This document shows positions 261 to 16,665 of a stretch of 24,000 bases of DNA, in pieces. How positions within the stretch are numbered: position 1 is the first letter of the stretch; each line of letters opens with the position of its first letter. The translations under genes and the position numbers were made by a program. Below the pieces are notes generated by a model. That model was not told the origin of the DNA, did no database searches, and saw nothing but the letters and a program-made list of their open reading frames with translations. This stretch comes from Halorubrum amylolyticum (GTDB lineage: Archaea; Halobacteriota; Halobacteria; Halobacteriales; Haloferacaceae): the NCBI RefSeq assembly GCF_004114995.1, contig NZ_SDJP01000003.1, positions 1-24,000 of the forward strand, given 5' to 3'.

Positions 261-629
261 CACCCGCTCGCGTTGGATAGCTGAATGAAAATGGAACCAG
301 AACATGAAGTTCCCTTCCGATGGAATTGTTGGCGGGTGCCCGGGATTAAGTCGGTCGGGATAACCGGGAGTGCTGAGAGTGTTGGGAGGGCCGTCAGGAA
401 CAAACGTCGCAACATGTGTCGACACGCACCTATGGTCAGAAAAATCCTCTTCCGAGCAGCATGGATGGGACTGTACAAGCCGATGAACCGAGATCAACGG
501 TAAGAGGCCCGAGGAACCAGTCGGGAAAATCGATTGAAGGCGAAACAGAGGGGCGAATGTTGTGACGGTTCCACTCCTTCAGCGGATTATAGAACAGGGA
601 CTAAATTTCGTCGCTCCAATTCAGGAGCC

Positions 630-1556: not shown

Positions 1557-1562
1557 CCGGTT

Positions 1563-1895: not shown

Positions 1896-2246
1896 AGTCG
1901 CAGATAGGTCAGTCCCGGTAATAAACGTTCGACGCGTCCATCGTACTCTCTACGAAACCGATCTTGATGATCTCGCTATCGAGTTAGAACGGATCAACAA
2001 CTGGGCAGGATTCCACTCCGATTACGAGTACGAACACTATTACATAACAGCGTGTCACCACGAGCGGTACAACAGTGATCAGGACAAGTAAGAAGCAGAA
2101 TCCGTTGAGCAGGCGGTTGCGATTGGAGTACTTGATTTGAACCTTAGAATGCGTACATCTATTGTACCGCTAACGATGTCACTGCAATCGTCTCCTTCCC
2201 GTCCAACCCGGAGGATCCAGGCTTCCGCGAAGCGCAAAAAGACCTC

Positions 2247-2771
2247 TTGGAGGTGCTGGAACGGCAGAACCCGATCTTCAGTTACGTGGCCCGCCGAATG
2301 CTCACCGAACAACCCTGGACCGACGGGAACGGCACGATCGAAGACGTTCGCCGCATTGTCCGCGAATTCTACGACGAAGCCGGTCGAGAGCAACCCGAGT
2401 ACTTCCCCGCTGACGAGCCGGCCGAGAAGACGTACGACACGGGGCGGTTGAAGTGGCAGCGGGATATCCAAGGCGGCCGTGTCACGTTCGAGTCGGAACC
2501 GAATGCTATTACAGCTGACTTCGACCGCGAAGAGTACGAAGTGTACGACTACGAGAAGCGCCTCCCCAAACGGTTCATGTCCGAAAAATCGTCCACAAGC
2601 GTCTACATCGGCGCACCCGAGGAATTCGCTGAGTGGATCGGATACTCCGTCACCGAACTCCTAAACGGCGCGGCCGAAACCGGCACGGACACCACGCAGT
2701 CAACCACCACGGAAGATACGTCGAATACGGACAACTCAGGGGGATTCTTTTCTCGGCTGTTCGGGGACTAA
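2247..2771 (+). CDS. Hypothetical protein with Thr/Ser-rich C-terminal tail; start uncertain (TTG 2247 or GTG 2253)
   Basis: Acidic, coding-like ORF (…PWTDGNGTIEDVRRIVREFYDEAGREQPEYFPADEP…). The frame stays open and coding-like upstream to the stop at 2145-2147 but contains no ATG, so the gene may be 5'-decayed. Confidence 0.5.
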   Translation: MEVLERQNPIFSYVARRMLTEQPWTDGNGTIEDVRRIVREFYDEAGREQPEYFPADEPAEKTYDTGRLKWQRDIQGGRVTFESEPNAITADFDREEYEVYDYEKRLPKRFMSEKSSTSVYIGAPEEFAEWIGYSVTELLNGAAETGTDTTQSTTTEDTSNTDNSGGFFSRLFGD

Positions 2772-2805
2772 TCTCGTCGGTTCTTTGTTCGACTCTCACG
2801 GGGGA

Positions 2806-3921
2806 CTACACGAGCTCCATCGCCTGCTCGGTCAGCCGGTAGCGATACGCTGGTCGAACAAACACGATCTGCCCGTAGTTTTCCGATTTCGTGACCTCTT
2901 CAGAGGACTCAATCGCTTCAACAGCCGTATTGAGTCGATCTACTGGATCGCCGGACTGCAGAAAGTCGATGATTTGCTCTGGTTCAATACCGAACTCCGC
3001 AGCGAGGATACTTCGGATTGTCCGCCCAGCACCGTCAGCGACGGCGACAGACGGTACCGAGGCACGGGCTTGCGGCCCGTCCCGCTCCGCAGCATCCTCA
3101 GAAAGCGCCGTGACCTGCAGCTCATCGTCGATATGCGCGATGAGGGCCTTCAGATTCGCTTCAGCTTCCTCAGTCACTTGCCCGTTCACGATGTCGTCAA
3201 GCCGCTCGCTAATCGCAAAGACGTCCGGCCCGGGCGGCGCTGTCTGCGCAAGGATCCCGATATCCACGAGATGATTGAGTACCGTCCTCGGTTGGTACTC
3301 GATATCGACATCAAGCGAGTCAATCATCTCCGCTCGTTTGATACCCTCTTCCTCGGAGTCGATCCCTGCCTTGTAGAACGCTTTTGCAACGGTTACCTGA
3401 TCGGAAACGCTGTGCGTGTTCCCCTTTTGTTCCCGAATATACCGCTCCAAGCGGTCGAAATTAGCGTCATCTTCCTCGTCAATCGTGAGCGCGTCTCTGA
3501 CTGTGTCTGGAAGTTCTGGACGCGGCGCATCACGGTGCCGCTGGGCTTTCTCCGACAGGCGCGTGTTATCGTAGAGCGCACGCGCGACGGGGAGCCCACG
3601 GAGATAATTGTACTCGTAGAGAATCTCCACACCGTGTTCAGTCAGGCCGTAGAACTGACTGGGGAGATCGCGCGCGTCCTCATTCGGCGGGTACCGATAA
3701 CAGTCGATAATATCGTTGTCACTGAGAACCTCCAGCTGATCCCGGATTGCGGCCTTGTTCTTCGGCATCATGTACGCCAACTCATCGAGTGAGGGGAGAT
3801 GCTCTGGGTGGCCAAGGATGAACTGCAGAATCAAGTGTCGCGTCTCCTGGGAGAGAAGGTCGTAGATCTGCCGCTGTTCCTCAAACGGGCCGCCACCCTC
3901 CGCGGCAGGCGCATCACTCAT
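2806..3921 (-). CDS. Winged-helix (ArsR-like) DNA-binding protein of the type common on haloarchaeal plasmids and islands
   Basis: I prefer ATG 3921 (MSDAPAAEGGGPFEEQRQIYDLLSQETRHLILQFILGHPEHLPSLDELAYMMPKNKAAIRDQLEVLSDNDII…FYGLTEHGVEIL), which shows a helix-turn-helix plus wing pattern. A possible second wHTH occurs around RTVLNHLVDIGILAQ. The ORF track starts at TTG 3969. Confidence 0.65.
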   Translation of the reverse strand: MSDAPAAEGGGPFEEQRQIYDLLSQETRHLILQFILGHPEHLPSLDELAYMMPKNKAAIRDQLEVLSDNDIIDCYRYPPNEDARDLPSQFYGLTEHGVEILYEYNYLRGLPVARALYDNTRLSEKAQRHRDAPRPELPDTVRDALTIDEEDDANFDRLERYIREQKGNTHSVSDQVTVAKAFYKAGIDSEEEGIKRAEMIDSLDVDIEYQPRTVLNHLVDIGILAQTAPPGPDVFAISERLDDIVNGQVTEEAEANLKALIAHIDDELQVTALSEDAAERDGPQARASVPSVAVADGAGRTIRSILAAEFGIEPEQIIDFLQSGDPVDRLNTAVEAIESSEEVTKSENYGQIVFVRPAYRYRLTEQAMELV

Positions 3922-4042
3922 AATCTCACTTGAGAGTACCTCGGCGACGCGAATAATACTTTGGGTCAACTGGTGTGGTCAATCGGCGTATTAGACATAT
4001 TGGTTAGCAACCTATTTATCTATTCCCCAAGGAGCACACAGT
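3922..4042. promoter_or_regulatory. AT-rich divergent promoter region between the wHTH gene and the 252-aa gene
   Basis: The TATA-like tatttatc (4013-4020) lies ~26 nt before ATG 4043, consistent with a leaderless mRNA. The TATA-like gaataatact (3951-3960, minus sense) lies ~30 nt before ATG 3921. There is a direct repeat ggtcaa at 3964-3969 and 3977-3982, and a small palindrome ggttagcaacc at 4002-4012. Confidence 0.4.
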
Positions 4043-4801
4043 ATGGCTGACCCCGGCCCGCCTCCGAATGCAGCGGAGATCATGGAGAGCGTGAACGATG
4101 CACTCCAAGGTCTCGAATTAGAACCTCACGAAACATCGGACATACTGGGGTTCGCCAACCGAGAGCTTCCGCACCTCCACACTCCCGAAGACTCGTATTT
4201 CATCCTCGGCAGCTACCGCGACCCCTACATTCGACGGCTCCGTATCGTCCAGAACGAACTCGACAAGCGACTCGGTACATACCCGTTCCTGATGGGCGAT
4301 CTCCAAGAATTAGATATTGACCGGCTCCCGGTCTTCCGCATTCGATTCACACTCCTCGCTGCGCACGCCGACACCATCGTCGCCGTGTATGAACAGGACG
4401 CCGGCGGCGAAATCACCGAACTCGGAAAGAGCAGCACGACACCGTACTTCGACAAATCCTACGTGCTACCGCGAGACTACAGGTGGATGACCGAACAGAA
4501 CCTCGACACAGAAGCAGACGTCATCGCCGCTGCCGCGACTATCTACTTCAACGACGATCTCGACGAAGCTACCACCGAAGAAGAGCTGGACTCGCTCATC
4601 ACAGCGGCGAACAAGAACGACATCGATCTTGCGAAACCAGACATCATAGAGCGACTTGAAGATCGAGACGACAGCGAAGACGCCCCAGTTTCATACAGTT
4701 GGGTGCATCTCAATGAATTCCGGCTTTTCGAACTTCACGGGCGGTGCCTCGCGTGGAGCACTCCCGACAATCTCCGCGATGTCGTAGCAGAAATCCCGTA
4801 A
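4043..4801 (+). CDS. Hypothetical protein (252 aa); the N-terminal half has a Rossmann-like strand-helix pattern reminiscent of nucleoside 2-deoxyribosyltransferase, TIR or SLOG-type folds (weak)
   Basis: The pattern is SYFILGSYRD…(helix)…YPFLMGDL…LLAAHADTIVAVYEQDAGGEITELG. This is eye-level resemblance only, followed by an acidic C-terminal half. Confidence 0.6.
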   Translation: MADPGPPPNAAEIMESVNDALQGLELEPHETSDILGFANRELPHLHTPEDSYFILGSYRDPYIRRLRIVQNELDKRLGTYPFLMGDLQELDIDRLPVFRIRFTLLAAHADTIVAVYEQDAGGEITELGKSSTTPYFDKSYVLPRDYRWMTEQNLDTEADVIAAAATIYFNDDLDEATTEEELDSLITAANKNDIDLAKPDIIERLEDRDDSEDAPVSYSWVHLNEFRLFELHGRCLAWSTPDNLRDVVAEIP

Positions 4802-4843
4802 CACGTTGTATCGATTCAGCGCTGTCAGCCCGGATCAGATTTA

Positions 4844-5242
4844 CTACCCAGTTTCAAGTATGTCAGCGGCTGGAATCGACTCGACAGTCACATTCACGGA
4901 TGGTGTTGAGTCGGCCTCGATGAGTCCGAGGTCTTCCCCTCGTTCAATCACGGTCAAAATGGCATCCGTAACTGCCTGCTCATCCACTCCATCCACTGTT
5001 GCGATCACACCATTACCGAATAACACAGCGGTGGTCATTGGCTGGTCTACGTGGTAAATCAAACCGGAGAACCGTTCTGGCTCGTACTCAATATTCGCTA
5101 ATCCGAGACCGATTGCGAGCGCATTAAGATTTAAATCGGATTCTAATTCAACGTATCCCGCTGTTTCACCAGTGTTCAATTCGACACCAACATCAGTGAG
5201 CGCGTCACGTACCGTGTCCGGGGTAAGTCCCTCGGTAGTCAT
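4844..5242 (-). CDS. Single-repeat TBP-domain protein (half-size TATA-box-binding-protein homologue)
   Basis: LNLNALAIGLGLANIEYEPERFSGLIYHVDQPMTTAVLFGNGVIATVDGVDEQAVTDAILTVIERGEDLGL matches one TBP repeat (consensus LdLnxxAxxLxxxEYePEqFpGLvYRxxxPkxxxLiFxSGKivxTGak…). At 132 aa there is room for only one repeat. A possible own TATA (taaatc, 5271-5276) lies ~30 nt upstream. Confidence 0.7.
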   Translation of the reverse strand: MTTEGLTPDTVRDALTDVGVELNTGETAGYVELESDLNLNALAIGLGLANIEYEPERFSGLIYHVDQPMTTAVLFGNGVIATVDGVDEQAVTDAILTVIERGEDLGLIEADSTPSVNVTVESIPAADILETG

Positions 5243-5292
5243 ATGAATGGCACACCGGGCACCAGTGTTGTAAATCTACTGCGAGATAGTGA

Positions 5293-6936
5293 TTAGTCTA
5301 AGCTCTGAACGCCAGTCGAGTCTCCCTCCCCGAAATCAGCCGATTCGGACTGTGTCGGTTCGCGTTGTCGTTCGTCATATGCTTCGCGCCATTCCTTGAT
5401 GACTGGCCTGCTTCCAGCACCGTGTGGTGTGCGTCGCTGTCGAACCTGGATTAGTGCTGGCGTGTTCATTGCGTCACCAGACACGACCGCTTGCCCTGGA
5501 GTTAACCCGGGCAACTCCCGAAGCACGTCCTCGCCAGCGGCCTCCACTGAGTTTTTGATCGCGTCCTGGTCATTCGGGTTCTTGATCTGCATCGAGATCT
5601 GCGTGCCGCACTGCGACAGTACGTCTTGATCGATTTTCGACGGGCGTTGACTGATAATTCCGAGTCCGAATCCGAACTTGCGGCCTTCAGACGTGATCGT
5701 TCGCATGATCCCTAGCGATGGGGCTTCACCGGAGGCTGGAGCAAAGCGGTGTCCCTCTTCGAACAAGGCGAAAATCGGATGCTCGATATCCGAATCCCGG
5801 TCTCGCACGTCATCGAGTCGCTCTCGGTACATCCGCCGCAGAAGAACGGTCGTGATAAGTTGCTGATCCCGCCGATCCAACGTATCCATCTGAAGGACGG
5901 TACACTGCCCTGGGTCCACAATTTCATCCAGCGGCACGTTCTCTTCAGGATGGAAGAGGTCATTCCGTTCGATCGATCGGCGGAGCCGCCATTCTAATGC
6001 GCCGACGCTTGCGTCATCATCGTCGTAGATCCGCTCCATCTCACCGATCAGTTCATCAATCCCCCATGTTCGACTTTCCTGACGTTGCATGGCTCGCCAT
6101 GCCGTCGAAAGCCGCTCTTGCATCCGATTGCTCGGATTATCCAAGATTGCCATGACATCGCCGATTTCCAGTTCAGAGATGCGAACGCGAAGTCGCTCCG
6201 GATCGTAGTACTCGATCTCTGGCTCATACCCATCCTCGCCCTGAAAGGCCTCTTCACCCTGCATTTCCGCTAACGTATCGTACTCACCGTGCGGGTCAAA
6301 CACGAGTAGTGATGCACGCGAACTCGGACGCATCATCTCCTCGATCAGGACCGACGCTGTGTAGGATTTCCCGCTCCCTGTTGAAGCGAGAATCGCTAGG
6401 TGTGTCGAAGCGAATTCTTCGATTGGAATGTGTAGATTTGTCGCCTCTGCCGGTCGATTCAACAGCCAGCCGACGTGCGCGACTCCGTCAAGCGTTGTGA
6501 CATCCGTGCTGTCAGTTTCACAGCCGAGGTTCGGCAACACGGTTTCGAGTTGCTGGTGTGGTGCGATCGACAGTGGCGTCCCCGGGTCAGGCAGCTGGCG
6601 AGGATTAGCGAACGTCGTCATATTCGTGTCGTAGTACCCTATGACCGTTGCTGTCAACCGGTACAACTCGGTATCATCAGTCGGCACGCCGAGCGTTGCC
6701 GCAACTGTCTCCGGCCCGATCTCCGGATCTGCAAGGAACCCTTCAGGAAGCCCCCGAATCAGTTCACGATTCGTCACGCGAGCGAACACCGATCGTGGCT
6801 CACCTTCTACCGAGACCGTGTACGTGATGAACTCACCCGTCTTGATCGACTTGTCCGACGGAGTCACGAACACGAATTCGTTCGGATCTTCACCCGGTCC
6901 AGCGACGGTTCCGACTACGTCTGATCGATCAGCCAT
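5293..6936 (-). CDS. herA: HerA-type (DUF87/FtsK-HerA superfamily) hexameric ATPase/helicase
   Basis: It has an N-terminal barrel segment (VVGTVAGPG…GEFITYTV…VFARVTN), Walker A ASTGSGKSY, Walker B/catalytic Glu FALFEEGHRF, and GRKFGFGLGIISQRPS. The start ATG overlaps the upstream stop (TAATG at 6934-6938). Confidence 0.85.
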   Translation of the reverse strand: MADRSDVVGTVAGPGEDPNEFVFVTPSDKSIKTGEFITYTVSVEGEPRSVFARVTNRELIRGLPEGFLADPEIGPETVAATLGVPTDDTELYRLTATVIGYYDTNMTTFANPRQLPDPGTPLSIAPHQQLETVLPNLGCETDSTDVTTLDGVAHVGWLLNRPAEATNLHIPIEEFASTHLAILASTGSGKSYTASVLIEEMMRPSSRASLLVFDPHGEYDTLAEMQGEEAFQGEDGYEPEIEYYDPERLRVRISELEIGDVMAILDNPSNRMQERLSTAWRAMQRQESRTWGIDELIGEMERIYDDDDASVGALEWRLRRSIERNDLFHPEENVPLDEIVDPGQCTVLQMDTLDRRDQQLITTVLLRRMYRERLDDVRDRDSDIEHPIFALFEEGHRFAPASGEAPSLGIMRTITSEGRKFGFGLGIISQRPSKIDQDVLSQCGTQISMQIKNPNDQDAIKNSVEAAGEDVLRELPGLTPGQAVVSGDAMNTPALIQVRQRRTPHGAGSRPVIKEWREAYDERQREPTQSESADFGEGDSTGVQSLD

Positions 6937-7643
6937 TAGACCATCCCTCGCTGTTCACGCGCTTGCCACTGTACGTTCTGTTCAACCACGTCTAGTACCC
7001 GCTGGTTTGGATCGTCTTCCGGGAGCATCCCTCGTAACCGGTCAATCAGTGCGACGATGACCTCCGACCCGAGGTCACCAGCAATATCCAAGAGTCGATC
7101 CATGTACGCCAACTGAATCTGATCGTCGACGGTATGGAAGGAAACTGTGACCTGATCAGGACAGTGGAAGACGGTATCCTCAACTTCTAACGTCCACCGC
7201 GGCATTTGATGCGTTGGCTCTTGTATTGTCCCTTCTTCGGCGATTTCTGCGGTACCGAGAAGCGCCACGCCAGCGAGCGTGGTGCGCTCTTCGATGTATC
7301 CCGGCGTGAATTGGGCCTGGTCGTCCTGCGCTAATCGCGGCCCGGTTCGCCCCTGGTCAGGATCGACTAACTGCGTGTCATAAATCACGCCCATGACGGC
7401 GTGCTCGGTTCCGTTGACGGGTTTCTTGATGAAGACTGGTTGCCCGAACTCGCGCTCGTGAAGTTCCGGTGGACGATCACAGTCACGTTCCTTGTACACC
7501 TCGGCGACGTAATCCAAGTGGCTGTTCGAGGATACGATGCTGCCAATCCGAACGCACGAATCGAGACCCGGACTGTCTCCGTCAGTTAGTGTGTCTGTCA
7601 TAGCTCCGTCTCCGTACTGTTGTCTGGTCGTCGAGCGGTGCAT
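6936..7643 (-). CDS. Orphan 235-aa protein wedged between nurA and herA; possible small beta-barrel (HAS/OB-like) N-terminal domain
   Basis: Coding-like acidic ORF whose stop overlaps the herA start. The pattern IGSIVSSNSHLDYVAEVY…FGQPVFIKK…HAVMGVIYDTQL resembles N-terminal barrels of HerA-type ATPases (eye only). There are no nucleotide-binding motifs. An alternative start is ATG 7601. Confidence 0.6.
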   Translation of the reverse strand: MHRSTTRQQYGDGAMTDTLTDGDSPGLDSCVRIGSIVSSNSHLDYVAEVYKERDCDRPPELHEREFGQPVFIKKPVNGTEHAVMGVIYDTQLVDPDQGRTGPRLAQDDQAQFTPGYIEERTTLAGVALLGTAEIAEEGTIQEPTHQMPRWTLEVEDTVFHCPDQVTVSFHTVDDQIQLAYMDRLLDIAGDLGSEVIVALIDRLRGMLPEDDPNQRVLDVVEQNVQWQAREQRGMV

Positions 7644-7674
7644 CCTGCTGGTGCGTGCGGGGTGTGGTGGTGAA

Positions 7675-8940
7675 TCATCGTCGTCGAAGTTCCTTGCTTA
7701 GTGCTTTAGCGTCCCATTCCAACGGCACGTCGTTCGATTCAGCCCAGCGTTGGACGACGCGCTGGAACTGTTGGCGGTCCTGATGGTCTAACACAGCGTC
7801 GCTATCGGCCTGTTGCAGGATTTCAGGATAGCCACGTCCGATGCCTGCTTCTGCCCACACAATGTCGACGGTGTACTCGTACATCGAATCGTACCCGTCG
7901 GGACCGTTACTGCGGCACAGCCACCCGGGGAATTCGATTCGGTCGAGTCCAGCGCCTGGTGGCACGTTCAAGTACGAGAACAAGATGTCATCGCGGAATT
8001 CGTATGCTTCCCCGTTATACGTTGTCTGCAACGCGTCGATACTCCCGTCGCGTTTCGAGATGAATGGGATTGTCGTGTCTCCCCACGGGCTCATCAACTC
8101 CGTCAGGACGTGCGCATCCGGAATGACGCGATCTGTCCCGAACTCCTCGCGTAACAGGAGCCGCGTCATCTTCACGAGTTCAGTCGCGCTCGACCCGGCA
8201 ACGTATCCCACCAGCGGGATGTCGTGGTGCTGACTCGCTGCAATAACTCGACTCAGCGTGGAGATGTACCGCTCTCGGGTCTCCGGCTTCAACGGGTTCG
8301 CAAACGACGCAATCAACGGCCCGTCATAGAACACGACCGGCGTCTGATCGATATCACCTGCATCACGCGCGTCAGCTAACTCCGAAAGTTGGTCGATGAG
8401 TAGCTGTCCTTCGTGTTCGAACCGATGATGGCCAACGAGTTGGGAATCAACGAACCGGTAGTCACCGTCCTCTGATTCTTGTGTGACCTCGTCAGGCGTC
8501 AAGAGTCGCCCTTCGACGCCGCGATCAAGCCGACCCTCCGCGTGATGGTGGTTGACTGCCCATGCCGCTTGGACGTACGCGAGCGGGACGTTGAATTGCG
8601 TTGTCGGCGGGAGCTGTGACCCATCGACAGCCATCACCGGCACGTCACGAATGATATCGCGCGCCCACTCGTTGACCTCCTCGTGATTCTCCCACCCGTC
8701 ACTCTCCGGGTACGGAACGATGAGACTATCTACCTCATCGAACTCGTCTGTCGGATACGCTCCTGGGTATGACGCGTCCTGGAGCGAGGCTCGAATCTCA
8801 GCACTCGTCCACTCGTCGGGCAACCGCTGAAACGCGTCTTGATACCGTTCTACGATCCCCGTATCGTCTTCGAGATACGTCTTAATCGTGTCAACGTTCG
8901 CCTCCAATTCAGACGCGACACCGCGTTTATCGATCGGCAT
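7675..8940 (-). CDS. nurA: NurA-domain nuclease
   Basis: NurA-like motifs are VMAVDGSQL (catalytic Asp), VFYDGPLIASF and VGYVAGSSATELV. The start ATG overlaps the rad50 stop by 1 nt (TAATG at 8938-8942). Confidence 0.75.
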   Translation of the reverse strand: MPIDKRGVASELEANVDTIKTYLEDDTGIVERYQDAFQRLPDEWTSAEIRASLQDASYPGAYPTDEFDEVDSLIVPYPESDGWENHEEVNEWARDIIRDVPVMAVDGSQLPPTTQFNVPLAYVQAAWAVNHHHAEGRLDRGVEGRLLTPDEVTQESEDGDYRFVDSQLVGHHRFEHEGQLLIDQLSELADARDAGDIDQTPVVFYDGPLIASFANPLKPETRERYISTLSRVIAASQHHDIPLVGYVAGSSATELVKMTRLLLREEFGTDRVIPDAHVLTELMSPWGDTTIPFISKRDGSIDALQTTYNGEAYEFRDDILFSYLNVPPGAGLDRIEFPGWLCRSNGPDGYDSMYEYTVDIVWAEAGIGRGYPEILQQADSDAVLDHQDRQQFQRVVQRWAESNDVPLEWDAKALSKELRRR

Positions 8941-11651
8941 TAATTGACCGACACCTCCGATGTCTGCCGGTCTTTCTCGATGGTAATCGTGTAGTCAGTC
9001 ATCGAATCGAACGTCTGGTCGTGACTAATGACCGTGAGTTGCTCGAAACTATCCAGCTGTTTGAGCTGGGTGACGAGATTCCGTTTCTTTTGCCGGTCGA
9101 GGTTCGCTGTCGGTTCGTCCAAGAATGCGATCCCCACGGACGCTAACTGTTCGAGAATCGCCAGTCGCACCGCAAGTGCAGCTGCCATCTTCTCCCCACC
9201 GCTCAGCGTGGAAAACGACTTTCTGACATCCGCATCGTGCACGACGATTTCGTAGTCGCTCGTCCACTCCAGCGTCTCAGCCGATGCGCCGCGAATCGAC
9301 CGGAACAACTCATTCGCCCGGGATCCAATCCGGTCGGTGATGATCTCTCGCATTTTCGGCCCGGCCTCGCGGACGTTCTCCCGCACCCAGTCGGCGAACT
9401 GCTGGTCCGCTTTCAGTTCCTTCACCTGCTGGAGTTTCTCCTGGCGCTCCTCTAGCTTCGTCTCCAACACCTCGATCGTTTCACGAACCTCCTCCAAATT
9501 CTCCTTCTTATGCTCTAATGACCGCCGATCACCTGCCAATTCCTCCTTGAGGTCCTCAATGTCTGACTCCAGCGTCTCGAATCGCTCGTCATCGAACGAC
9601 GCTTTCGTCTCCTCCAGTTCTGCCTTCGTCTCTTCAAGATCCGCTTCGAGGTCTGCAAGCTCGCTCTCCAAGTCTTTGACTCTCTCCCGCCGCTCCTCCA
9701 CCTGCGACGCTTGCTGCTCGTACTTGATATACGTCTGATGTGCCGACTCCGTCTCCTCCAGCGTTTCCTTGACCTCCGTCAACTCTTCATCCAGGCCCTC
9801 GAACGCTTCCAACTCGTCTTCGATATCCGCCAGCGCCGACTGTTCCTCCTCTAGTTCCGCCCGTTTTGCCTTCAACTCATCAGGGACATCAGCATGCTCC
9901 TTCACTCGGAATTCAGCAGTCTGGTACTCGTCGTACGCCTCCTCCAAGTCGTTTCGCTCGGCTTCGATATCCGGGAGCCCCTCCAATTCGTCTTCCAAGT
10001 CCGCTAACTCTGACTCCATCTCTTCCTTCTCGGCGCGCAGATCTTCGATCTCACCTTCCAACGACTCGATTTTCTCCCGATGAACAGGGAGCTTATCAAC
10101 GCGCTGCTTGACCTCTCGCGCCGTGTTACGCCGCTCACGCAACGCATCAAGTTTCTCGGCGAGTTCCTCACGCTCCGTCTCGATTTCCCCGATCCGGGCT
10201 TCACGCTGCTCAATCGTCTTCGACCGGTGATCCTCGTTTAACGGACGGTCACACGTCGGGCACGGCGCATCAACATCCGTGTCACGTAACCTGTCCAACT
10301 GTTCTTCGAGCCGCTCATGCTCGCTCTCCAGTTGCTTCCGGCTCGCCTCTCGGTCGTTGATCTCACCGGAGAGTGCTTCCGGATCCGTCGTCCCCTCCCA
10401 CTCGTCTTCTATCTCCGCAATCGTCTCTTCTTTCGCCTCGATTTCGCGCTCCTTCGATTCGATCTGCTCTGCCAACTGCTCGATTTCCTCTTCTAACGCC
10501 TCTACGTCGTCCTCGCGGTCTTTCAGCGACTCAATACGGTCATCAAGCTCCTCATACCGTTCTTTCTCCTCTTCACGCGCCTCCAACGTGTCCCGAGCCG
10601 CCTCCAGTTCTTCCAGATCCTCTTCCAGCTGTTCGACCTCGAATTCGATCGCCTGGATCGTGTCTTTCTGTTCGTCTCGGTCCGCGACGAGCGCGTCCCG
10701 TTCGGCCTCCTGTTCCTCTAACTCATCCTGCCGCTCGCGTGCCTCCTCGTACTGACGGTACCCCTCGCGGTTCGCCTCGCACTTCTCCTGTGCCTCTTCG
10801 GCGGCTGTGAGTTCCTCCTTCGCCGTCCCCAAATTGTCTTTAGTCGAGTCGATGTCCCCTTCCAGCGAATCAACCTCCTGATCAAGACGGTCGATTTCCT
10901 CTTCAACAGCTTCCAACTCTTCGTACTCTTCTTCTTTCTCCGACAACTCGCCGGCTTTCCGTTCGATCCCGGCTTCAATTTCCTCAACGTCATCGGCCAA
11001 CGACTCCGCTTCCGCTCGCTCGTCCGGCAACCCCTGCACCTCGCCGGTGAGCGTATCAATGTCCCTACGGAGATCCTGCTGCCGACTCTCGATTGCGTCC
11101 GGCACGTCCTTGAGCGTCTCCCACGACCCCTCGTACGCGTCCAGATTCAGGAGCGCATCGAACGTTGCCTTGCGATTTCGAGGCGTTTGCGAGAAGTCCG
11201 ATAGGAATCGCGTTTGGGGTACCCCGATGCTGGAACTCCAGAGACTGCTAAGCTCGTCTCCATCTTCAACATCGAAGCGCGCACACAACCAGTCCACCAA
11301 CTGCGTCTTGGAATCGATGTCCTGATCGATCCACTCGTCAGCATCGGGATCATACCGGTGCACGCCGTACTTCGACCGGCCGACCGATCGAACAACTTTG
11401 TACCGGTCCGTCCCGTTCTGTGTGTCCTGCTCGAACGTGACTTCGACCGTTCCGGAACTCGCGCCTTCCCGCACGAACTCCTTGTTGTTGAAGGGGAGCG
11501 AGTCGAACAACGCGAATCCGATGGCCTCCTGAACCGTCGATTTCCCCGCGCCGTTCTCACCGAGAATCGCCGTCACGCCGCCTTCGATCGGCACGACAGT
11601 CCGATCCTCATACGACTTGATGTCTTCCAACGCAACCTCCGTGATTCTCAT
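8940..11651 (-). CDS. rad50: Rad50/SbcC-type SMC-like ATPase with zinc hook
   Basis: It has Walker A GENGAGKST, a very long E/L/R/D-rich coiled coil with a central CxxC hook (DAPCPTCDRPL), the signature LSGGEK, Walker B IAFLDEPT, and an H-loop VISHD. The start overlaps the mre11 stop (ATGA at 11648-11651). Confidence 0.9.
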   Translation of the reverse strand: MRITEVALEDIKSYEDRTVVPIEGGVTAILGENGAGKSTVQEAIGFALFDSLPFNNKEFVREGASSGTVEVTFEQDTQNGTDRYKVVRSVGRSKYGVHRYDPDADEWIDQDIDSKTQLVDWLCARFDVEDGDELSSLWSSSIGVPQTRFLSDFSQTPRNRKATFDALLNLDAYEGSWETLKDVPDAIESRQQDLRRDIDTLTGEVQGLPDERAEAESLADDVEEIEAGIERKAGELSEKEEEYEELEAVEEEIDRLDQEVDSLEGDIDSTKDNLGTAKEELTAAEEAQEKCEANREGYRQYEEARERQDELEEQEAERDALVADRDEQKDTIQAIEFEVEQLEEDLEELEAARDTLEAREEEKERYEELDDRIESLKDREDDVEALEEEIEQLAEQIESKEREIEAKEETIAEIEDEWEGTTDPEALSGEINDREASRKQLESEHERLEEQLDRLRDTDVDAPCPTCDRPLNEDHRSKTIEQREARIGEIETEREELAEKLDALRERRNTAREVKQRVDKLPVHREKIESLEGEIEDLRAEKEEMESELADLEDELEGLPDIEAERNDLEEAYDEYQTAEFRVKEHADVPDELKAKRAELEEEQSALADIEDELEAFEGLDEELTEVKETLEETESAHQTYIKYEQQASQVEERRERVKDLESELADLEADLEETKAELEETKASFDDERFETLESDIEDLKEELAGDRRSLEHKKENLEEVRETIEVLETKLEERQEKLQQVKELKADQQFADWVRENVREAGPKMREIITDRIGSRANELFRSIRGASAETLEWTSDYEIVVHDADVRKSFSTLSGGEKMAAALAVRLAILEQLASVGIAFLDEPTANLDRQKKRNLVTQLKQLDSFEQLTVISHDQTFDSMTDYTITIEKDRQTSEVSVN

Positions 11652-13165
11652 TGCTCCACCACCTCCCCTGCCTCCGTCTCTCCGTCTGCTTCGTCGCCGT
11701 CTGTCGTGTCACCAGACGCTTCCTCGCCTGTGTCAGCATCGGCGAACGGATCTTCTTCAATGTCCAGCACGACGTCGTCTGTCAGTTCTGGGAACAACTC
11801 CTGGCGCGCCGAACTCACGGAGTCACGAATATCCTCAACAGCTTCGCCAGCTTGGGCCATCTGATGAGCGTTCCCTAACACGTCAGCGACATCGGCTGCG
11901 TGGTCATCGTAGATCGATTCCTTCGCAATCGTCTCGAAAACGCGGTGTTCTAACGCAGCCGTGTTCAGCTGCCCATCTTTGAACACTTCGTCCTCGTCGA
12001 TTTCCGAGAGAAGTTGCTGCACGTTCGCCGTCCGAATCCCTGTATTTACTTGGACGTACAATGCGTCGCACGTGTCTTCTACCCACGCCGCAAGTTCATC
12101 CGTTCGGAAATCCCCACGGCTAAACTGCAACGTGCCCGTGAACCGAAGATCGATAATCGGTTCTCGCGGCTCGCCTTGTGCCGTGAACTCGTCCTGACTG
12201 CAGTATTCTGTCATCGCAGCCTGCTCATCCTGAACGTGCTCTTGAAACGCGGTTTCGAGGTCGCCAGGTGACTCATGCGCCGTCACGTCGAATTCAATCC
12301 GGTAGTACGGCCGTCGCTTCGTCGGATGATGCTCCACGTCGAACCCAATCGCGTCACCACCAGCCCCGGAGCCTCCGACGTCGAGCATGACCGAGTAATA
12401 GCCGTGCTCCCACTCAGGCCTCCCTTCCCGCGTATTATGCGCTTCCGGCGACCCGGGATTGTAGATCCACCCACCCGACTCGTACCGCTTGTGAATGTGC
12501 CCGAGCGCCAGGTAATCCACGACGTCTTTCACGTCTCGCAGCTCGCCATGGGTTACTGTCCCGCCGAGCGTCGGCACCTCGTCTTCCATCCCGAAATGCG
12601 CCAGCAACACAGTCCACGCCGGCTCACCATGCATCTCATTCGTCTCCTGAATCCCCTTCGCCACCTGCTGGAGCGCCTGGTCTGTCTTCGCGCCGCGCCA
12701 CTGCAGGCCGAACACGCGAATCGGCCCGTCTACGTCCGCGGCATCAATATCATAAAACCCTGCAGACTGCCCCGGTTCGTCCGGATCGTACGGGTTGAGC
12801 CACGCTGTCTCCGGGTCCGCGTTCAGATCAGCCTGCAAGAACACGATGTGTCCGCGCTGATGAAGGTAATTCAGCCACGTCACGTCACGCGGCGTCAGAT
12901 TCTCGTCGTGGTTACCGCGCGAGACTAACACCGGTACCTCATCGGGGATCTGTTCGAGTTCCTGTTCGATCTGATGCAGGATCTTCGGGCGCAAATCCCG
13001 TGAGTGGAACAGGTCACCCGGTGACAGAATCGCATCCGTTTCGCGCTCCTCAATCATCTCTTGGAACGCAGCACGCGTGGTCGATACCATATCGTCCTCG
13101 CGTTGTTTCAACCCGTATTGTCGATGGCCAAGATGCGTATCAGCGATGTGTGTAAGTGTCAGCAT
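11648..13165 (-). CDS. mre11: Mre11/SbcD-type metallophosphoesterase nuclease
   Basis: Phosphoesterase motifs occur in order: IADTHLGH, GDLFH, GNHD, LLAHFG, GHIH. It has an acidic C-terminal tail and is the first gene of the coupled operon. Confidence 0.9.
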   Translation of the reverse strand: MLTLTHIADTHLGHRQYGLKQREDDMVSTTRAAFQEMIEERETDAILSPGDLFHSRDLRPKILHQIEQELEQIPDEVPVLVSRGNHDENLTPRDVTWLNYLHQRGHIVFLQADLNADPETAWLNPYDPDEPGQSAGFYDIDAADVDGPIRVFGLQWRGAKTDQALQQVAKGIQETNEMHGEPAWTVLLAHFGMEDEVPTLGGTVTHGELRDVKDVVDYLALGHIHKRYESGGWIYNPGSPEAHNTREGRPEWEHGYYSVMLDVGGSGAGGDAIGFDVEHHPTKRRPYYRIEFDVTAHESPGDLETAFQEHVQDEQAAMTEYCSQDEFTAQGEPREPIIDLRFTGTLQFSRGDFRTDELAAWVEDTCDALYVQVNTGIRTANVQQLLSEIDEDEVFKDGQLNTAALEHRVFETIAKESIYDDHAADVADVLGNAHQMAQAGEAVEDIRDSVSSARQELFPELTDDVVLDIEEDPFADADTGEEASGDTTDGDEADGETEAGEVVEQ

Positions 13166-13397
13166 GATCAGTGTGTCGTGGAGGGTACTTGTTCAGCCGA
13201 GCGTGCTACCAAATCACGGGCCTGAAAGTATGTGACTACGTGTAACCTGACGGCTATTAAATGCCAGTCAACCAGGGTGAAAGTGAATCAGAGACGACAG
13301 ACAACATAGATGGCCATACGATTGTACAGCAATCGAAAATATCGGAGCCTCTAAGCTCTCTACTTACACTTTGGGTGGCGAATCTTCATACGGATCG

Positions 13398-13412
13398 TTG
13401 CTGTAACAGCAA
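13398..13412. promoter_or_regulatory. Perfect 7-bp-arm palindrome ttgctgt-a-acagcaa, 10 nt upstream of the WYL-like gene start
   Basis: Read directly from the sequence. It lies in the 256-bp divergent intergenic region between mre11 (start 13165) and the WYL-like gene (start 13422). It could be an operator or a leader hairpin; function unknown. Confidence 0.3.
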
Positions 13413-13421
13413 AATAGACGC

Positions 13422-13712
13422 ATGACCTCCAAAATCTGCCAAGCAATTCAGGAAAACCGCGTAATCGAATTCCGCTACGACGGGCATTACCGAAAAGTCG
13501 AACCGTACTGTCACGGCACCAGTGAACGCGGCAAAGAATCAGTACGAGGGTATCAGGTCGCAGGAGGGAGCAACTCACGGAGCATCCCGTTCTGGCGACT
13601 CTTCACCGTCGCAAAGATCGGAGACCTAAGCCTCACCGACGAGACGTTCCAAGGAAACCGACCAGCGTACAACCCGAACGACAAGGATCTACGCGTCCAC
13701 TGTAACATCTAA
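13422..13712 (+). CDS. Minimal stand-alone WYL-like domain protein (96 aa, no HTH)
   Basis: RVIEFRYDGHYRKVEPYCHGTSERGKESVRGYQVAGGS…IPFWRLFTVAKIGDLSLTDETF follows the WYL-domain pattern (hxhxYxxxxxxRxhxPYxxxxxxGxxxhxxYxxxxxxxWRxFxhxxIxxxxxxxexF). Confidence 0.6.
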   Translation: MTSKICQAIQENRVIEFRYDGHYRKVEPYCHGTSERGKESVRGYQVAGGSNSRSIPFWRLFTVAKIGDLSLTDETFQGNRPAYNPNDKDLRVHCNI

Positions 13713-13787: not shown

Positions 13788-14378
13788 ATGGCACCGTCCT
13801 ACGTGAGCCGGGGTTCAGATGTCGATGAAGAACTCGCGGAGCGGCTGATTCAGCGTGTACAAGAGGATCCCGCAAAACCGTGGACTATCGTTTCGGATGT
13901 GGCTGACGCTACTGACGAGAACCCAGAGACCGGTACAGCATCGAAGACGGAACGTGGAGCGCAATTATGCGTCGCGTCACCGACGCCGCCTACCGTGATG
14001 TCTTCGACCACGGCACCACCCCCTCCCCAACGTGTCAAACGCCGTGTTCCGCGAAGGCCAAGTCACCGTCATCCCAACCAGTCACCTCCACGGCGCAAAA
14101 GAAGAACTCACCGTCCTCTCCTACATCATCGACAACAAAATCGACGACTACAACGTCGATCCCAACGTCAAAGACACTCCACTCCTCGTCGCCGTTGACG
14201 AAGCCCACAACTACGTCTCCGACCTTGCCGACGAGGCCCTGTTGGCGGCCACAGCGCCGGTGACGAAGCCCACAACTACGTCTCCGACCCAACACTCTCC
14301 GGGAACAATACATCGTCAACTGCGCTCGTGACGCCGTCAAACAAGGCCGCAAAGACAAACTCGGCCTTTTCATGATCA
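13788..14378 (+). pseudogene. Decayed HerA/DUF87-like ATPase gene: multiple frameshifts, no Walker A region, 3' end cut by the IS
   Basis: Pieces lie in three frames: MAPSYVSRGSDVDEELAERLIQRVQEDPAKPW…; …REGQVTVIPTSHLHGAKEELTVLSYIIDNKI…PLLVAVDEAHNYVSD (Walker B-like, cf. FALFEEGHRF); and NTLREQYIVNCARDAVKQGRKDKLGLFMI (cf. GRKFGFGLGIISQRP). The last piece runs straight into the IS end at 14379. Confidence 0.6.
14190..14289. repeat. 35-bp direct repeat (1 mismatch) separated by a 30-bp spacer, inside the pseudogene
   Basis: 14190-14224 (cgccgttgacgaagcccacaactacgtctccgacc) matches 14255-14289 (cgccggtgacgaagcccacaactacgtctccgacc). The 65-bp offset shifts the reading frame. Confidence 0.9.
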
Positions 14379-15447
14379 GAGCGTGTCATAGAAAGCGTCA
14401 CGTACGAAGCTGCAGGGTGCGGGAAGTGTGTCCAACACCAGCGCAACCCTGCAAGACGTAGCTTCGGTAGACGACTTCTTGAATGTCGCGGCTACCGAGA
14501 CAGTGCCGCTGTTCGAGCATCTTGAGTTCGAGTTTCTCCTGGAGTACGACGTGTTCGCCCCCTCGAAGCGGGGGCGAACACGAGTTCATCAGCCACCAGA
14601 TCTCTTTCGCGGCTTTCTGCACTGCTACTACGAGGATGTCCACGGTACACGCCCGGTTGCACGAGAACTTCAGCACGGCCTCGCCTGGTACTATTGCGGA
14701 CTCGACAAACCGCCGTCCAGAGACACGATTGACCGCTTTATCACCGACATCGAACACGTCATCGACGATGTCTTCGACAGGCTCGTCGAGCAGGCCGCCT
14801 ATCGGGGCCTGCTCGACTCGACGTACTCTATCGATTCGACACACGTTGAGGCGATTCAGTACAACGACGCGGCGTCATGGAACTACGATCCAACAGCCGA
14901 AGAGTACTACTACGGCTTCGGCTGTATGATTGTCTCGACCGGTGCAAAGATCCCGATTGCAGCGGAGTTCACACAGGCCAAGCAAGCAGACCAGGAGACG
15001 GCGATGCGCGTCACGCGTGACGCGCTCGCCGTCGATACACCAATCTGGATGGTCGGAGACAGCGCCTATGACATCCTCGACTGGCACGACTACCTGCTGG
15101 CCGCAGGGGTCGTGCCAGTCTCCCCGTACAACCCACGAAACACTGACGACCCGAAAGACATCGAGTACAGGGTCGAAGACCGTATCAAGGAACACAGCGA
15201 GGACGTTCAGCTCAAGCAATCCATCTTGGACGAGACGTACAACCGACGGACAGGCGTTGAACGAACCAACGACGCAGTCAAGGACTGCGGCCTCGGGCAC
15301 GTCCGCGCCCGAGGCCGCGTTCATGCACGAACAGAAGCGTTCCTTGCGCTTTGTCTCCGGCTCGTCGTTGCAATCACCAACTTTGAGCAGGGAGACAATC
15401 CTGGCCGTGAGAAACTCACGCTATGAGACTGATTCTATGACACGCTC
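14379..15447 (+). mobile_element. Complete ISH-type insertion sequence (1069 bp) with 15-bp perfect terminal inverted repeats
   Basis: IRL gagcgtgtcatagaa (14379-14393) is the reverse complement of IRR ttctatgacacgctc (15433-15447). It carries a single transposase ORF. The flanks atgatca / gtcgtaa are not a direct duplication. Size and IR length recall ISH11-type elements (recollection; needs an ISfinder check). Confidence 0.85.
14428..15426 (+). CDS. DDE transposase (IS4/IS5 superfamily), GTG start
   Basis: The DDE-type landmarks are YSIDSTHVEA, IWMVGDSAYD, and YNRRTGVERTNDAVK (the Y-x2-R-x3-E-x6-K signature). Confidence 0.85.
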   Translation: MSNTSATLQDVASVDDFLNVAATETVPLFEHLEFEFLLEYDVFAPSKRGRTRVHQPPDLFRGFLHCYYEDVHGTRPVARELQHGLAWYYCGLDKPPSRDTIDRFITDIEHVIDDVFDRLVEQAAYRGLLDSTYSIDSTHVEAIQYNDAASWNYDPTAEEYYYGFGCMIVSTGAKIPIAAEFTQAKQADQETAMRVTRDALAVDTPIWMVGDSAYDILDWHDYLLAAGVVPVSPYNPRNTDDPKDIEYRVEDRIKEHSEDVQLKQSILDETYNRRTGVERTNDAVKDCGLGHVRARGRVHARTEAFLALCLRLVVAITNFEQGDNPGREKLTL

Positions 15448-15753
15448 GTCGTAATGGTGTCAAACCAGCACCCGACCACGATTGAATTAGATCCTCGGAG
15501 CCGCTCCCGGTTGAATTGCCAAACGCTTGAGTTCAACTCCTACAACGCTGCTCAGCTCGAACAGATACTGGAGAAGCGGGTTGAACAGGCATTTCGTCCC
15601 GGATCTGTCCCAGACAGTGTCATCACAAAGATCGCGGAACAGGTAGCCGAAAACTCGGGTGACTGTAGACAGGCCCTTTCACTACTGCTTCAAGCCGCAC
15701 GAAAAGCGGAGCAGAAGGGGCTTACAGAAGTGTCAGAAGAATTTCTAACGTGA
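15448..15753 (+). pseudogene. Orc1/Cdc6 fragment (middle/lid portion only): 5' end removed at the IS junction, winged-helix C-terminus missing
   Basis: VVMVSNQHPTTIELDPRSRSRLNCQTLEFNSYNAAQLEQILEKRVEQAFRPGSVPDSVITKIAEQVAENSGDCRQALSLLLQAARKAEQKGLTEV matches the Orc1/Cdc6 pattern (IsN…LdxRxxSrL…FxpYxxxQLxxILxxRxxxAF…GDxRxALxLLxxA). The frame abuts the IS end at 15447. Confidence 0.7.
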
Positions 15754-15982: not shown

Positions 15983-16028
15983 CGTCTTGGTAAGGACGAG
16001 ACCCCGAGTTCAAATCTCGGCCTAGGCT
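15983..16028 (+). other. tRNA 3' portion: imperfect anticodon-arm-like stem, T-arm, 3' acceptor strand and discriminator. It has no matching D-arm or 5' acceptor, so it is a candidate att-site remnant
   Basis: The T-arm is ccgag-ttcaaat-ctcgg (16004-20), followed by cctaggc+t (16021-28). Upstream is cgtc-ttggtaag-gacg (15983-98). Only a 6/7 partner for the 5' acceptor (ttttagg, 15960-66) exists, and the 37 nt between cannot form a normal D-arm. Confidence 0.5.
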
Positions 16029-16037
16029 CTTTCCTCC

Positions 16038-16064: not shown

Positions 16065-16383
16065 GGCTACGCTCGCCTGAACGAAACCCGTTCAAGATTC
16101 GCTTCTCTCGCTAAACAGGGTATCCCTCGCCGTAATGCGATTCGCTGAACTGTCAGGACACACAAACAAATACACAGGCCGCGGTGGGATAGACCCGAAA
16201 TCGACCGAGGGCGCGTCCCCTCAAGGGACACTCCTGATTTCGCTAATCAACGCTCACAGCGGGAAGAATGAAGCTTAGTCAGGAATGTGATAGAACACCC
16301 TCGATGCGGTTATCCACGACGAGTACGCGGCGAGTGATGTTCCGCCGAAACGACTATTGGTAAGACCAACGTATTACGTCTAT

Positions 16384-16665
16384 ATGTCTGAAGCAGCTAC
16401 GAACGACGACGGCGGAGACGACATCGCCACGGTGAATTTCAAACTCACCGAGTCGTTCCTCGAACAGATAGACGATACGTGGCAGGGACGCGGATTCAAC
16501 AGTCGGAGCGAGTTCATCCGGTACACGCTTCGAGACGCCGTCGAGTTCCCGACGTTCGACCGCGACGAACTCGTCGCCCTGCTCGAAGCCGAGGAGGACA
16601 TCCGCGAGGGACGGACGACGAGCGCCGAGGAAGCCCGCGAGCGATTCGGCACGAGCGATGAGTGA
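16384..16665 (+). CDS. Ribbon-helix-helix (CopG/Arc/MetJ-type) protein, putative antitoxin
   Basis: I prefer ATG 16384. ATVNFKLTESFLEQIDDTWQGRGFNSRSEFIRYTLRDAV is a typical RHH strand-helix-helix. Its stop overlaps the next gene's start by 8 nt. Confidence 0.7.
   Translation: MSEAATNDDGGDDIATVNFKLTESFLEQIDDTWQGRGFNSRSEFIRYTLRDAVEFPTFDRDELVALLEAEEDIREGRTTSAEEARERFGTSDE

Follow-up and report, generated by a model that had tools for sequence, protein, structure and literature searches.

We analysed a stretch of 24,000 nucleotides (nt), hereafter the window, from Halorubrum amylolyticum (contig NZ_SDJP01000003.1), and found that it carries an operon of five genes encoding Mre11, Rad50, NurA, a protein of the family DUF8166, and HerA. 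In our reading, this operon encodes an ancient form of the HerA-NurA/Mre11-Rad50 machinery for end resection, made of five subunits, which Halobacteria acquired as mobile cargo. That the cluster is horizontally acquired accessory DNA is well supported, and it probably acts as an accessory machine for end resection and repair, with which an activity against foreign linear DNA is compatible. The theme of the gene cluster is already known. What deserves attention is that it occurs as mobile cargo in a lineage with reportedly neither HerA nor NurA, that its uncharacterised fifth subunit is apparently barrel-like, and that the operon is conserved across domains.

A coupled five-gene operon with intact catalytic motifs

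All coordinates refer to the window, whose first letter is position 1, and locus labels such as L001 denote related loci. The five genes lie on the minus strand in the order mre11, rad50, nurA, the DUF8166 gene, and herA (5' to 3'), with the operon spanning 5293-13165 (Table 1). The initial annotation had described them as translationally coupled and had named their families and motifs, and this is borne out by the table of open reading frames (ORFs), where its seven ORFs were all located at the same positions, by the reading of the junctions, and by matches in Pfam and NCBIfam. Genes mre11 and rad50 overlap by ATGA (11648-11651), rad50 and nurA by TAATG at 8940, and the DUF8166 gene and herA by TAATG at 6936. 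The gap of 31 nt (7644-7674) described between nurA and the DUF8166 gene stands if the first ATG is used. The start conserved in the family is M15 (ATG at 7601), which leaves 73 nt after nurA and gives a protein of 221 amino acids (aa). All five genes are under purifying selection, the ratio of non-synonymous to synonymous substitution rates (dN/dS) being 0.03-0.17 (0.09 for mre11 relative to L002, 0.03-0.04 for nurA). The values for the DUF8166 gene (0.04-0.07) place it at the level of constraint of HerA and NurA.

The four families of an end-resection cluster are encoded together. In Pfam, Mre11 matches Metallophos (E 4.5e-11), NurA matches PF09376 (E 5e-24), and HerA matches DUF87 (E 3e-36) and HerA_C; in NCBIfam, Rad50 has a full-length match to NF003034 (E 5.7e-70). 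The translations of all four proteins have intact catalytic motifs: the five phosphoesterase motifs of Mre11 (DTH, GDLFH, GNHD, LLAH, GHIH), GENGAGKST, the CPTC zinc hook, LSGGE and FLDEP in Rad50, the Walker A and B motifs GSGKS and FEEGH in HerA, and VDGS in NurA, of which D106 would be an acidic active-site residue if one goes by the resemblance of the motif.

The proteins nevertheless fall far under the equivalog cutoffs of NCBIfam (HerA 167 vs 970 bits, Rad50 236 vs 700, Mre11 62 vs 500), and NurA has no match in that database, which points to a divergent subfamily. The models of the haloarchaeal equivalogs (NF041030 and NF041035) score even lower, with 124 bits vs a cutoff of 1000 for Rad50_Halo and 49 vs 550 for Mre11_Halo, and for Rad50 the models of thermophiles score higher than the haloarchaeal one. 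Since these scores are so far under the haloarchaeal cutoffs, Mre11 and Rad50 of the window are not orthologues of the housekeeping pair, and they would constitute a second copy beside the pair of the host. Among solved structures, the best relatives of the window HerA are those of Thermococcus kodakarensis (9x1l, 136 bits) and Sulfolobus solfataricus (4d2i, 117 bits), and the HerAs of defence systems score 58-101 bits. By this measure the window HerA is nearer to the repair HerAs that are partnered with NurA than to those of defence systems.

Horizontal spread in Halobacteria

The composition of the window changes along its length, with a G+C of 0.52-0.60 up to ~16.3 kb and of 0.68-0.75 beyond. 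The five operon genes have a G+C at third codon positions (GC3) of 0.61-0.71 (0.67-0.71 for mre11 and rad50), vs 0.90-0.97 in the core genes fibrillarin, nop56, the CBS gene, and lonB. In the closest relative found, Halorubrum lipolyticum, the order LonB-CBS-Nop56-fibrillarin is syntenic with 18559-24000 of the window at 89-96% DNA identity, and nothing of the island is present at the syntenic site. The core protein Nop56 shares 92% identity with its H. lipolyticum counterpart, and the values within Halorubrum range over 70-92%.

The block 5290-13304 is 90-94% identical at the DNA level to blocks in Halosimplex, Halovenus, Natronomonas, Haloplanus, Haloarchaeobius, Salinibaculum, and Salinadaptatus, and is equally close to another Halorubrum species and to a 224-kb plasmid of Natrinema zhouii (NZ_CP084885). 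The amino-acid identity of the cassette across different genera reaches 92-99%, and two copies are plasmid-borne. Other Halorubrum species have copies that are merely 73-76% identical and belong to different clades of the module, which implies that the genus acquired it more than once. The DNA homology to other genera stops at 13165, 13287, or 13304 on the mre11 side and at ~5290 on the herA side, and in most loci it extends barely beyond the herA stop and 0-140 nt into the region before mre11. Hence, the five genes and their upstream region (13166-13304), for which we infer a promoter function, behave as a unit. About 30 species of haloarchaea and numerous contigs from hypersaline metagenomes have the same order of five genes, and this order is strict in all 33 genome loci where the contig allows its reading, with the exception of L024. 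The foreign composition, the cross-genus identity, the Natrinema plasmid, and the island-free H. lipolyticum support the horizontally acquired cargo proposed in the initial annotation.

The presence of all catalytic motifs and the purifying selection would also be seen if this were the ordinary, and only, Mre11-Rad50 repair locus of the host. It is however very hard to reconcile such a locus with scores so far under the haloarchaeal equivalog cutoffs, with GC3 values 0.25-0.35 below those of core genes, with a syntenic site that lacks the module in H. lipolyticum, with a cassette shared at 90-94% DNA identity with other genera and a plasmid, and with different Halorubrum species carrying different clades of the module. 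We therefore give this explanation almost no credence.

Two sets of loci call for separate mention. Short contigs with a haloarchaeal-type module (L020 and L033, 77% and 59% identity) are found in metagenome-assembled genomes (MAGs) labelled Halanaerobiaceae and Syntrophomonadaceae. This is probably a binning error, with haloarchaeal DNA of hypersaline sediment placed in the wrong MAGs. In Halobacterium yunchengense, two scaffolds (L012 and L013) have identical match coordinates and scores over the 20.7 kb fetched, and represent either a recent duplication or an assembly repeat.

DUF8166, a predicted barrel-like fifth subunit

The protein encoded between nurA and herA had been left as an unassignable orphan of 235 aa, a description that is now outdated. 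It belongs to Pfam PF26500 (DUF8166), a family conserved from Halobacteria to Chloroflexota and Asgard archaea, and PF26500 is recorded on all 120 homologues listed, some of which UniRef names 'DUF8166 domain-containing protein'. The name is not mentioned in the literature that we searched. A profile search of 1.84 billion representative proteins retrieved 201 clusters, mostly of ~195-200 aa, with named members in Chloroflexota/Caldilineaceae, Cyanobacteria, a Helarchaeota MAG, and Nanohaloarchaea. There were no relatives in the viral contigs of IMG/VR, and thus no sign of carriage by viruses.

An AlphaFold2 model of DUF8166, made from an alignment of 15 sequences, is confident, with a predicted local distance difference test (pLDDT) of 81 and a predicted template modelling score of 0.75. 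It consists of a beta-barrel-like domain at residues ~30-160 followed by two long helices. When the model was compared with the PDB using Foldseek, the top 39 matches were all HerA chains (E down to 3e-6, ~143 columns), both from repair complexes (T. kodakarensis, Deinococcus radiodurans, S. solfataricus) and from defence complexes (Sir2-HerA, HerA-DUF4297). HerA has a single beta-rich domain of this size, its N-terminal barrel, which is the docking site of NurA or of the effectors of defence systems, and hence the modelled fold of DUF8166 apparently resembles this barrel. The order of strands and helices in the model also parallels that of the N-terminus of the window HerA, whose full-length model is poor (pLDDT 57) and was used solely for this N-terminal secondary structure.

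We also considered that DUF8166 could be a barrel split off from HerA. This was rejected, since an N-terminal beta-domain is still present in the window HerA and is conserved throughout its clade, and DUF8166 is therefore better described as an added barrel-like protein than as a detached piece of HerA.

The best-conserved motif of the family, NP..G..GPRL ... F.PDY.E, covers residues 97-117, which form the only low-confidence loop of the model. The position suggests that the loop binds a partner or DNA, as is expected of a segment that becomes ordered on its partner.

The operon and shorter versions of it in bacteria and Asgard archaea

The operon is not restricted to Halobacteria. A Chloroflexota-type contig encodes Metallophos-SbcC/Rad50-NurA-DUF8166-HerA in the order of the window, with ruvA, ruvC, yebC, and nfi as neighbours and an XPB-like helicase upstream, and another metagenome contig has the same five genes. 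In the five-gene bacterial loci L038 and L041 the proteins are 26-43% identical to those of the window (Mre11 27-29%, Rad50 26-31%, NurA 31-33%, DUF8166 32-36%, HerA 43%). Shorter versions include a triad NurA-DUF8166-HerA in a Helarchaeota contig, NurA-Uma2-DUF8166-HerA in other sequences, NurA-DUF8166-HerA beside an integrase and Tn7-like genes, and DUF8166-HerA only in Caldilineaceae. The window HerA is 38-52% identical to the DUF8166-paired HerAs of Asgard archaea and Chloroflexota. Judging from these sequences, mre11-rad50-nurA-DUF8166-herA is an old arrangement that exists in both domains.

To quantify the association, we searched metagenomes with an alignment of HerA and analysed the 80 closest relatives with custom hidden Markov models, counting only loci with enough upstream sequence. 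When HerA is 49-96% identical to that of the window (23 loci), DUF8166 is encoded directly upstream in 23/23, NurA in 16/16, and all five genes are present in 11/12. When it is 40-45% identical (57 loci), these values are 19/47, 10/33, and 9/22. DUF8166 is a conserved partner of one particular clade of HerA. In 28 loci within L073-L124, all with a HerA in the lower range of identity, neither DUF8166 nor NurA lies upstream, and the partnership of HerA with DUF8166 may act in trans or may not be obligatory.

The distant loci that carry DUF8166 are flanked by housekeeping genes and by genes for UvrD (two loci), RecG (two), and RecA (one), and the families of integrases and of restriction-modification are not among the commonest in these flanks. 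Considering that the bacterial flanks consist of repair and housekeeping genes and that the window HerA is nearest to repair HerAs, the data point to chromosomal DNA repair as the ancestral role.

Neighbours of the module and alternative roles

In Halobacteria, a PLD-domain protein of ~780 aa adjoins the module in 15 loci (L003:13288-15699, L012:12355-14736, L028:1932-4049, and 12 others), in three arrangements: downstream on the same strand, downstream and inverted, or upstream. An acidic middle part separates its N-terminal PLD/NgoFVII-like nuclease domain (HSKIY...GSANLS) from a P-loop-like motif in the C-terminal part, and the matches of the protein to PLDc_2 and RE_NgoFVII are weak and under the Pfam cutoffs. 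In 8 loci the PLD gene is followed by an adenine methylase of the Eco57I/TaqI_C type, and the two may form a pair akin to restriction-modification, or may cooperate functionally with the module. In 4 loci, the flank upstream of mre11 contains a gene for an OLD/GajA-like ATPase-TOPRIM nuclease, which runs on the other strand. In the N. zhouii plasmid (L001), a trio encoding a TerB-N protein, an ATPase, and a DEAD/DEAH helicase stands beside the module.

These recurrent neighbours, the patchy distribution of a module that is mobile and borne by plasmids or islands, and a WYL-like gene divergent from mre11 in 5 loci (including the window) could indicate a role in defence or in conflicts between elements. 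The module would then destroy incoming linear viral or plasmid DNA in the manner of RecBCD, perhaps with the PLD nuclease and methylase or the OLD nucleases creating or marking the ends, and HerA-NurA has been suggested to act on foreign DNA in a mode of double-strand digestion (PMC12977600). We consider this unlikely. Adjacency is a weak argument, since islands gather defence genes anyway. In the window, the PLD gene is reduced to its final 174 codons and the methylase is gone, yet the five operon genes are intact and constrained, which shows that the module is independent of that pair. Bacterial members lie in repair or housekeeping neighbourhoods, and the window HerA is nearer to repair than to defence HerAs. 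Furthermore, PADLOC assigned the module to no defence family, and its matches to HerA models, LmuB, mad3, and mad8 reflect a generic similarity between ATPases.

Membership in known systems was specifically rejected. Lamassu was discarded because LmuA and LmuC have no match in PADLOC and the LmuB match is partial (residues 1-415 of Rad50). MADS (mad1 to mad8) was discarded because the matches to mad3 (Rad50) and mad8 (HerA) are generic, at 86-87 bits, and no other mad genes were found. Sir2-HerA and HerA-DUF4297 were discarded because neither Sir2 nor DUF4297 is encoded in the operon or in the neighbouring ORFs scanned, and the partner of HerA is NurA.

Another possibility is that NurA-HerA pumps or processes DNA for transfer, or serves the replication or recombination of its carrier, as proposed by analogy with the NurA-like protein and TdtA of ICEth1 from Thermus. 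This 14-kb element, located in the 3' end of a tRNA gene, encodes a type IIG restriction enzyme, NurA, TdtA, and a methylase, and its NurA and TdtA are required for DNA donation (PMC5365140). The haloarchaeal relatives have an analogous layout, in which the module is followed by the PLD nuclease and the methylase. In one of them (L042, a contig labelled Nanohaloarchaea, 4947-12314) a DUF8166 variant of 207 aa lies directly against the conjugation genes TraG-D_C, T4SS_pilin, TrbL_3, TraC-like, and DUF8128. The plasmids of N. zhouii and Haloferax alexandrinus are typed MPF_T in PLSDB, and the island of the window ends at a tRNA-like fragment. However, the analogy is one of gene content alone, TdtA is membrane-localised and works without Mre11-Rad50, and there is no hint of membrane association here. 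Most loci have no transfer genes within 10 kb, and the bacterial members are chromosomal and in core contexts. A role in the biology of the element is, in our opinion, improbable.

Some features of these loci are reported here for completeness. The protein cluster of the 207-aa DUF8166 variant of L042 also includes sequences of Halobellus clavatus and Haloarcula argentinensis. The N. zhouii plasmid has an additional SbcCD-like pair, formed by an AAA ATPase (959 aa) and a DNA repair exonuclease (441 aa), and this pair and the TerB-N trio are located at 279-4485 and 18070-24120 of L001. In Halorubrum vacuolatum (L021, 18219-20261), an array of 13 tRNA genes is found ~6 kb downstream of the module. 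Such arrays are unusual on chromosomes and typical of viruses or large mobile elements.

Proposed role of the five-subunit machine

Accessory end resection and repair is the role that we favour. The operon would encode a co-transcribed machine of five subunits that processes double-stranded DNA ends. By homology to characterised enzymes, Mre11-Rad50 would recognise, tether, and open the ends, and NurA, seated on the hexameric translocase HerA, would perform an ATP-driven processive resection or degradation. In this sense, we infer an ATP-dependent resection of double-stranded ends and a HerA6-NurA2 complex. The adjacency of the genes and the fold of DUF8166 suggest that it may bind HerA. It could form an additional collar at the face of the barrel that NurA docks on, or mimic that barrel, and in this position would be an adaptor or gate that controls assembly and the entry of DNA. 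In Chloroflexota-type bacteria the operon is chromosomal and set among housekeeping and repair genes, and in Halobacteria it is an accessory cassette that travels with plasmids and integrated elements. Here, it may provide extra recombinational repair capacity to the host or to the element, and possibly a nuclease against foreign linear DNA.

Several observations weigh against this interpretation. The neighbours in Halobacteria are typical of mobile elements and defence islands, and also fit a role other than repair. Decaying copies, in which herA (L018), mre11 (L021), or several genes (L030) are affected, show that the module is dispensable. DUF8166 stands by itself in L044 and in L043, a cyanobacterial contig that has ruvC at a distance of 1 kb, and 28/47 of the distant HerA relatives have no DUF8166 upstream, meaning that the partnership is not obligatory. 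The DUF8166 profile has no match in the PDB at the sequence level and hhalign gives a non-significant alignment of its residues 33-173 with residues 9-161 of HerA (probability of 5.6%), which leaves the fold comparison as the sole support for the resemblance to the barrel; the Foldseek output of that comparison identifies the matching HerA chains and not the HerA residues that align. Finally, the contact between HerA and DUF8166 and its stoichiometry are deduced from adjacency, the start/stop overlap, and the fold.

A bolder proposal, which we regard as rather doubtful, is that the five subunits form an 'end-destroyer' of mobile elements, with which plasmids and islands of haloarchaea would gain innate immunity against linear DNA of viruses or plasmids or would process DNA for transfer between cells, with DUF8166 as a hitherto unrecognised regulatory ring, or as a decoy of the HerA barrel, that gates NurA-HerA. 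If this were true, DUF8166 would be an overlooked core part of the machinery for double-strand break resection in Chloroflexota-type bacteria and some Asgard archaea.

HerA and NurA are reported to be absent from Haloferax volcanii (PMC7776575), and their genes reportedly are not apparent in halophiles (PMC12977600). Despite this reported absence, a complete Mre11-Rad50-NurA-HerA machine circulates on haloarchaeal mobile DNA. As a mobile operon, it could explain differences between strains in tolerance to DNA damage, in recombination, or in resistance to viruses. DUF8166 is a concrete new candidate partner for the structural biology of HerA-NurA, and H. volcanii, with its background free of both proteins, is well suited to separate roles in repair, defence, and transfer.

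The island and its debris

The remaining features of the window are listed in Table 1. The initial annotation had placed the operon in DNA of lower G+C together with insertion sequence (IS) copies, an orc1/cdc6 fragment, and a second, decayed HerA-like gene, and the G+C profile, the family matches, and a DNA match agree with it. The IS element has inverted ends that can be read from the sequence (AGAGCGTGTCATAGAA / TTCTATGACACGCTC). The decayed ORF that it cuts is a HerA-like remnant fused to another ORF, and a duplicated DEAHNY-coding repeat is visible. Its HerA-like part is 91% identical in DNA to the 3' part of a gene for a 623-aa HerA-like protein of H. alexandrinus pBNX82-4 (L127). Positions 1-6618 of that plasmid encode Mre11-like, Rad50-like (1089 aa), NurA (429 aa), and HerA-like proteins, followed by an OLD-family nuclease, and there is no DUF8166. 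The remnant of the window derives from such a DUF8166-free module, and at least two kinds of these modules are therefore present on the mobile DNA of haloarchaea.

The tRNA 3' fragment proposed earlier is visible by eye and was called by neither ARAGORN nor Rfam. It is not found in the other loci of the module, and the shift in G+C occurs just past it, at ~16.3-16.5 kb. A comparison excluded that it corresponds to the tRNA-Leu located near fibrillarin in H. lipolyticum. It is a probable att remnant at the edge of the island. At this edge (16357-17029), a small ribbon-helix-helix gene (CopG-like, weak match) overlaps an ORF of 123 aa with a RelE/ParE-like N-terminus recognised by eye, and the two may be a decayed toxin-antitoxin pair.

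The two genes that bracket the operon are variable neighbours and not parts of the unit. The WYL-like label has the PADLOC match in its favour, and no match in Pfam or NCBIfam and no helix-turn-helix (HTH) domain; it is weakly supported. Besides the window, the gene is present only in L004, L005, L006, and L008. The single TATA-binding protein (TBP) repeat was confirmed, since the gene matches positions 107-186 of the profile, and among related loci it occurs only in L002 and L003. With 4 and 2 occurrences in ~30 other loci, both were rejected as components of the system. The divergent gene pair without family match recurs in L006, L009, and L032, and its 252-aa member also occurs, truncated, in L002 and L003. 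The 387-aa protein has an N-terminal stretch that looks winged-helix-like by eye. A few kb from the module, at 534-1556, there is an ADP-ribosylglycohydrolase gene, and one that is 35% identical lies just upstream of the five-gene operon of L041 (761-2644), which may be a coincidence.

Table 1. Position of the operon genes and of the other features of the island in the window.
Feature	Position	Strand	Remarks
mre11-like nuclease gene, operon gene 1	11648..13165	-	505 aa
rad50-like ATPase gene	8940..11651	-	903 aa; coiled coil and CPTC zinc hook
nurA nuclease gene	7675..8940	-	421 aa
DUF8166 gene, fifth subunit	6936..7643	-	ORF of 235 aa; 221 aa from the conserved start
herA translocase/helicase gene, last gene of the operon	5293..6936	-	547 aa
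Conserved upstream region of the cassette	13166..13304	-	Probable promoter/5' leader; contains a TTTAATA element
C-terminal remnant of a ~780-aa PLD-nuclease-domain protein	2189..2771	+	174 aa; homology begins sharply at 2189 in 14 loci
Divergent pair, first gene	2806..3969	-	387 aa; no family match; recurs beside the module
Divergent pair, second gene	4043..4801	+	252 aa; no family match; recurs beside the module
Single-repeat TBP-domain gene, variable neighbour	4844..5242	-	132 aa; PF00352 E 1.5e-11, second repeat only
Small WYL-like gene, divergent from mre11, variable neighbour	13422..13712	+	96 aa; no HTH; PADLOC WYL E 1e-5
Chimeric decayed ORF, cut by the IS	13788..14373	+	3' part (13931-14378) left over from a second, different HerA-like gene; DNA match
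IS element with terminal inverted repeats	14373..15447	+	DDE_Tnp_1 transposase of 332 aa; PF01609 E 3e-24
orc1/cdc6 fragment	15454..15753	+	Lid domain only; Cdc6_lid E 1e-17
tRNA-like 3' fragment	~15990..16030	+	T-arm and acceptor strand; CCGAG-TTCAAAT-CTCGG, by eye

Comparison with known systems

The closest known arrangement is the herA-mre11-rad50-nurA operon of thermophilic archaea (Sulfolobus, Pyrococcus/Thermococcus), reportedly described by Constantinesco et al. in 2002 and 2004. The two have in common the clustering, and presumably the co-expression, of the same four families with all catalytic motifs, and the HerAs of T. kodakarensis and S. solfataricus are the nearest to that of the window among solved structures. 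They differ in gene order, which is mre11-rad50-nurA-X-herA in the window, with DUF8166 as the gene between nurA and herA, in agreement with the different order and extra subunit of the initial annotation; the added gene is both conserved and constrained. They also differ in that the proteins of the window are far under the NCBIfam equivalog cutoffs, and in that this type of operon is accessory and mobile in mesophilic halophiles.

The bacterial NurA-HerA pairs of D. radiodurans and Thermus thermophilus (TTC0147) resemble the module in the pairing itself, and relatives of the module in Chloroflexota-type bacteria are chromosomal, near ruvA/ruvC, recA, recG, and uvrD. To our knowledge, the characterised bacterial pairs have neither DUF8166 nor linked Mre11-Rad50 (SbcCD-like) genes, whereas the clade found here often has all five.

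ICEth1 (PMC5365140) also combines NurA and a HerA-family ATPase on a tRNA-integrated element, with a restriction-type nuclease and a methylase as flanking genes, and the haloarchaeal relatives have a similar kind of flank. In the window, the nuclease is truncated, the methylase is absent, and a tRNA-like fragment stands at the edge of the island. In contrast with the module, ICEth1 lacks Mre11-Rad50 and DUF8166 and its TdtA is membrane-associated, and the likeness is known from gene content alone.

The antiphage systems based on HerA (Sir2-HerA/Nezha, HerA-DUF4297) have in common with the module the HerA hexamer and the barrel face on which effectors dock, and the DUF8166 model matches their HerA chains. 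The likeness to defence ATPases of the Rad50/SMC type (LmuB of Lamassu, mad3 and mad8 of MADS) consists of generic PADLOC matches. Unlike all these systems, the module has no Sir2, DUF4297, LmuA, or other MADS genes, and its partner nuclease is NurA, as in repair systems.

Finally, the housekeeping mre11-rad50 genes of H. volcanii and Halobacterium NRC-1 belong to the same two families and have the same order. The pair of the window differs in not being orthologous to them and in being linked to nurA and herA, two genes that H. volcanii lacks (PMC7776575).

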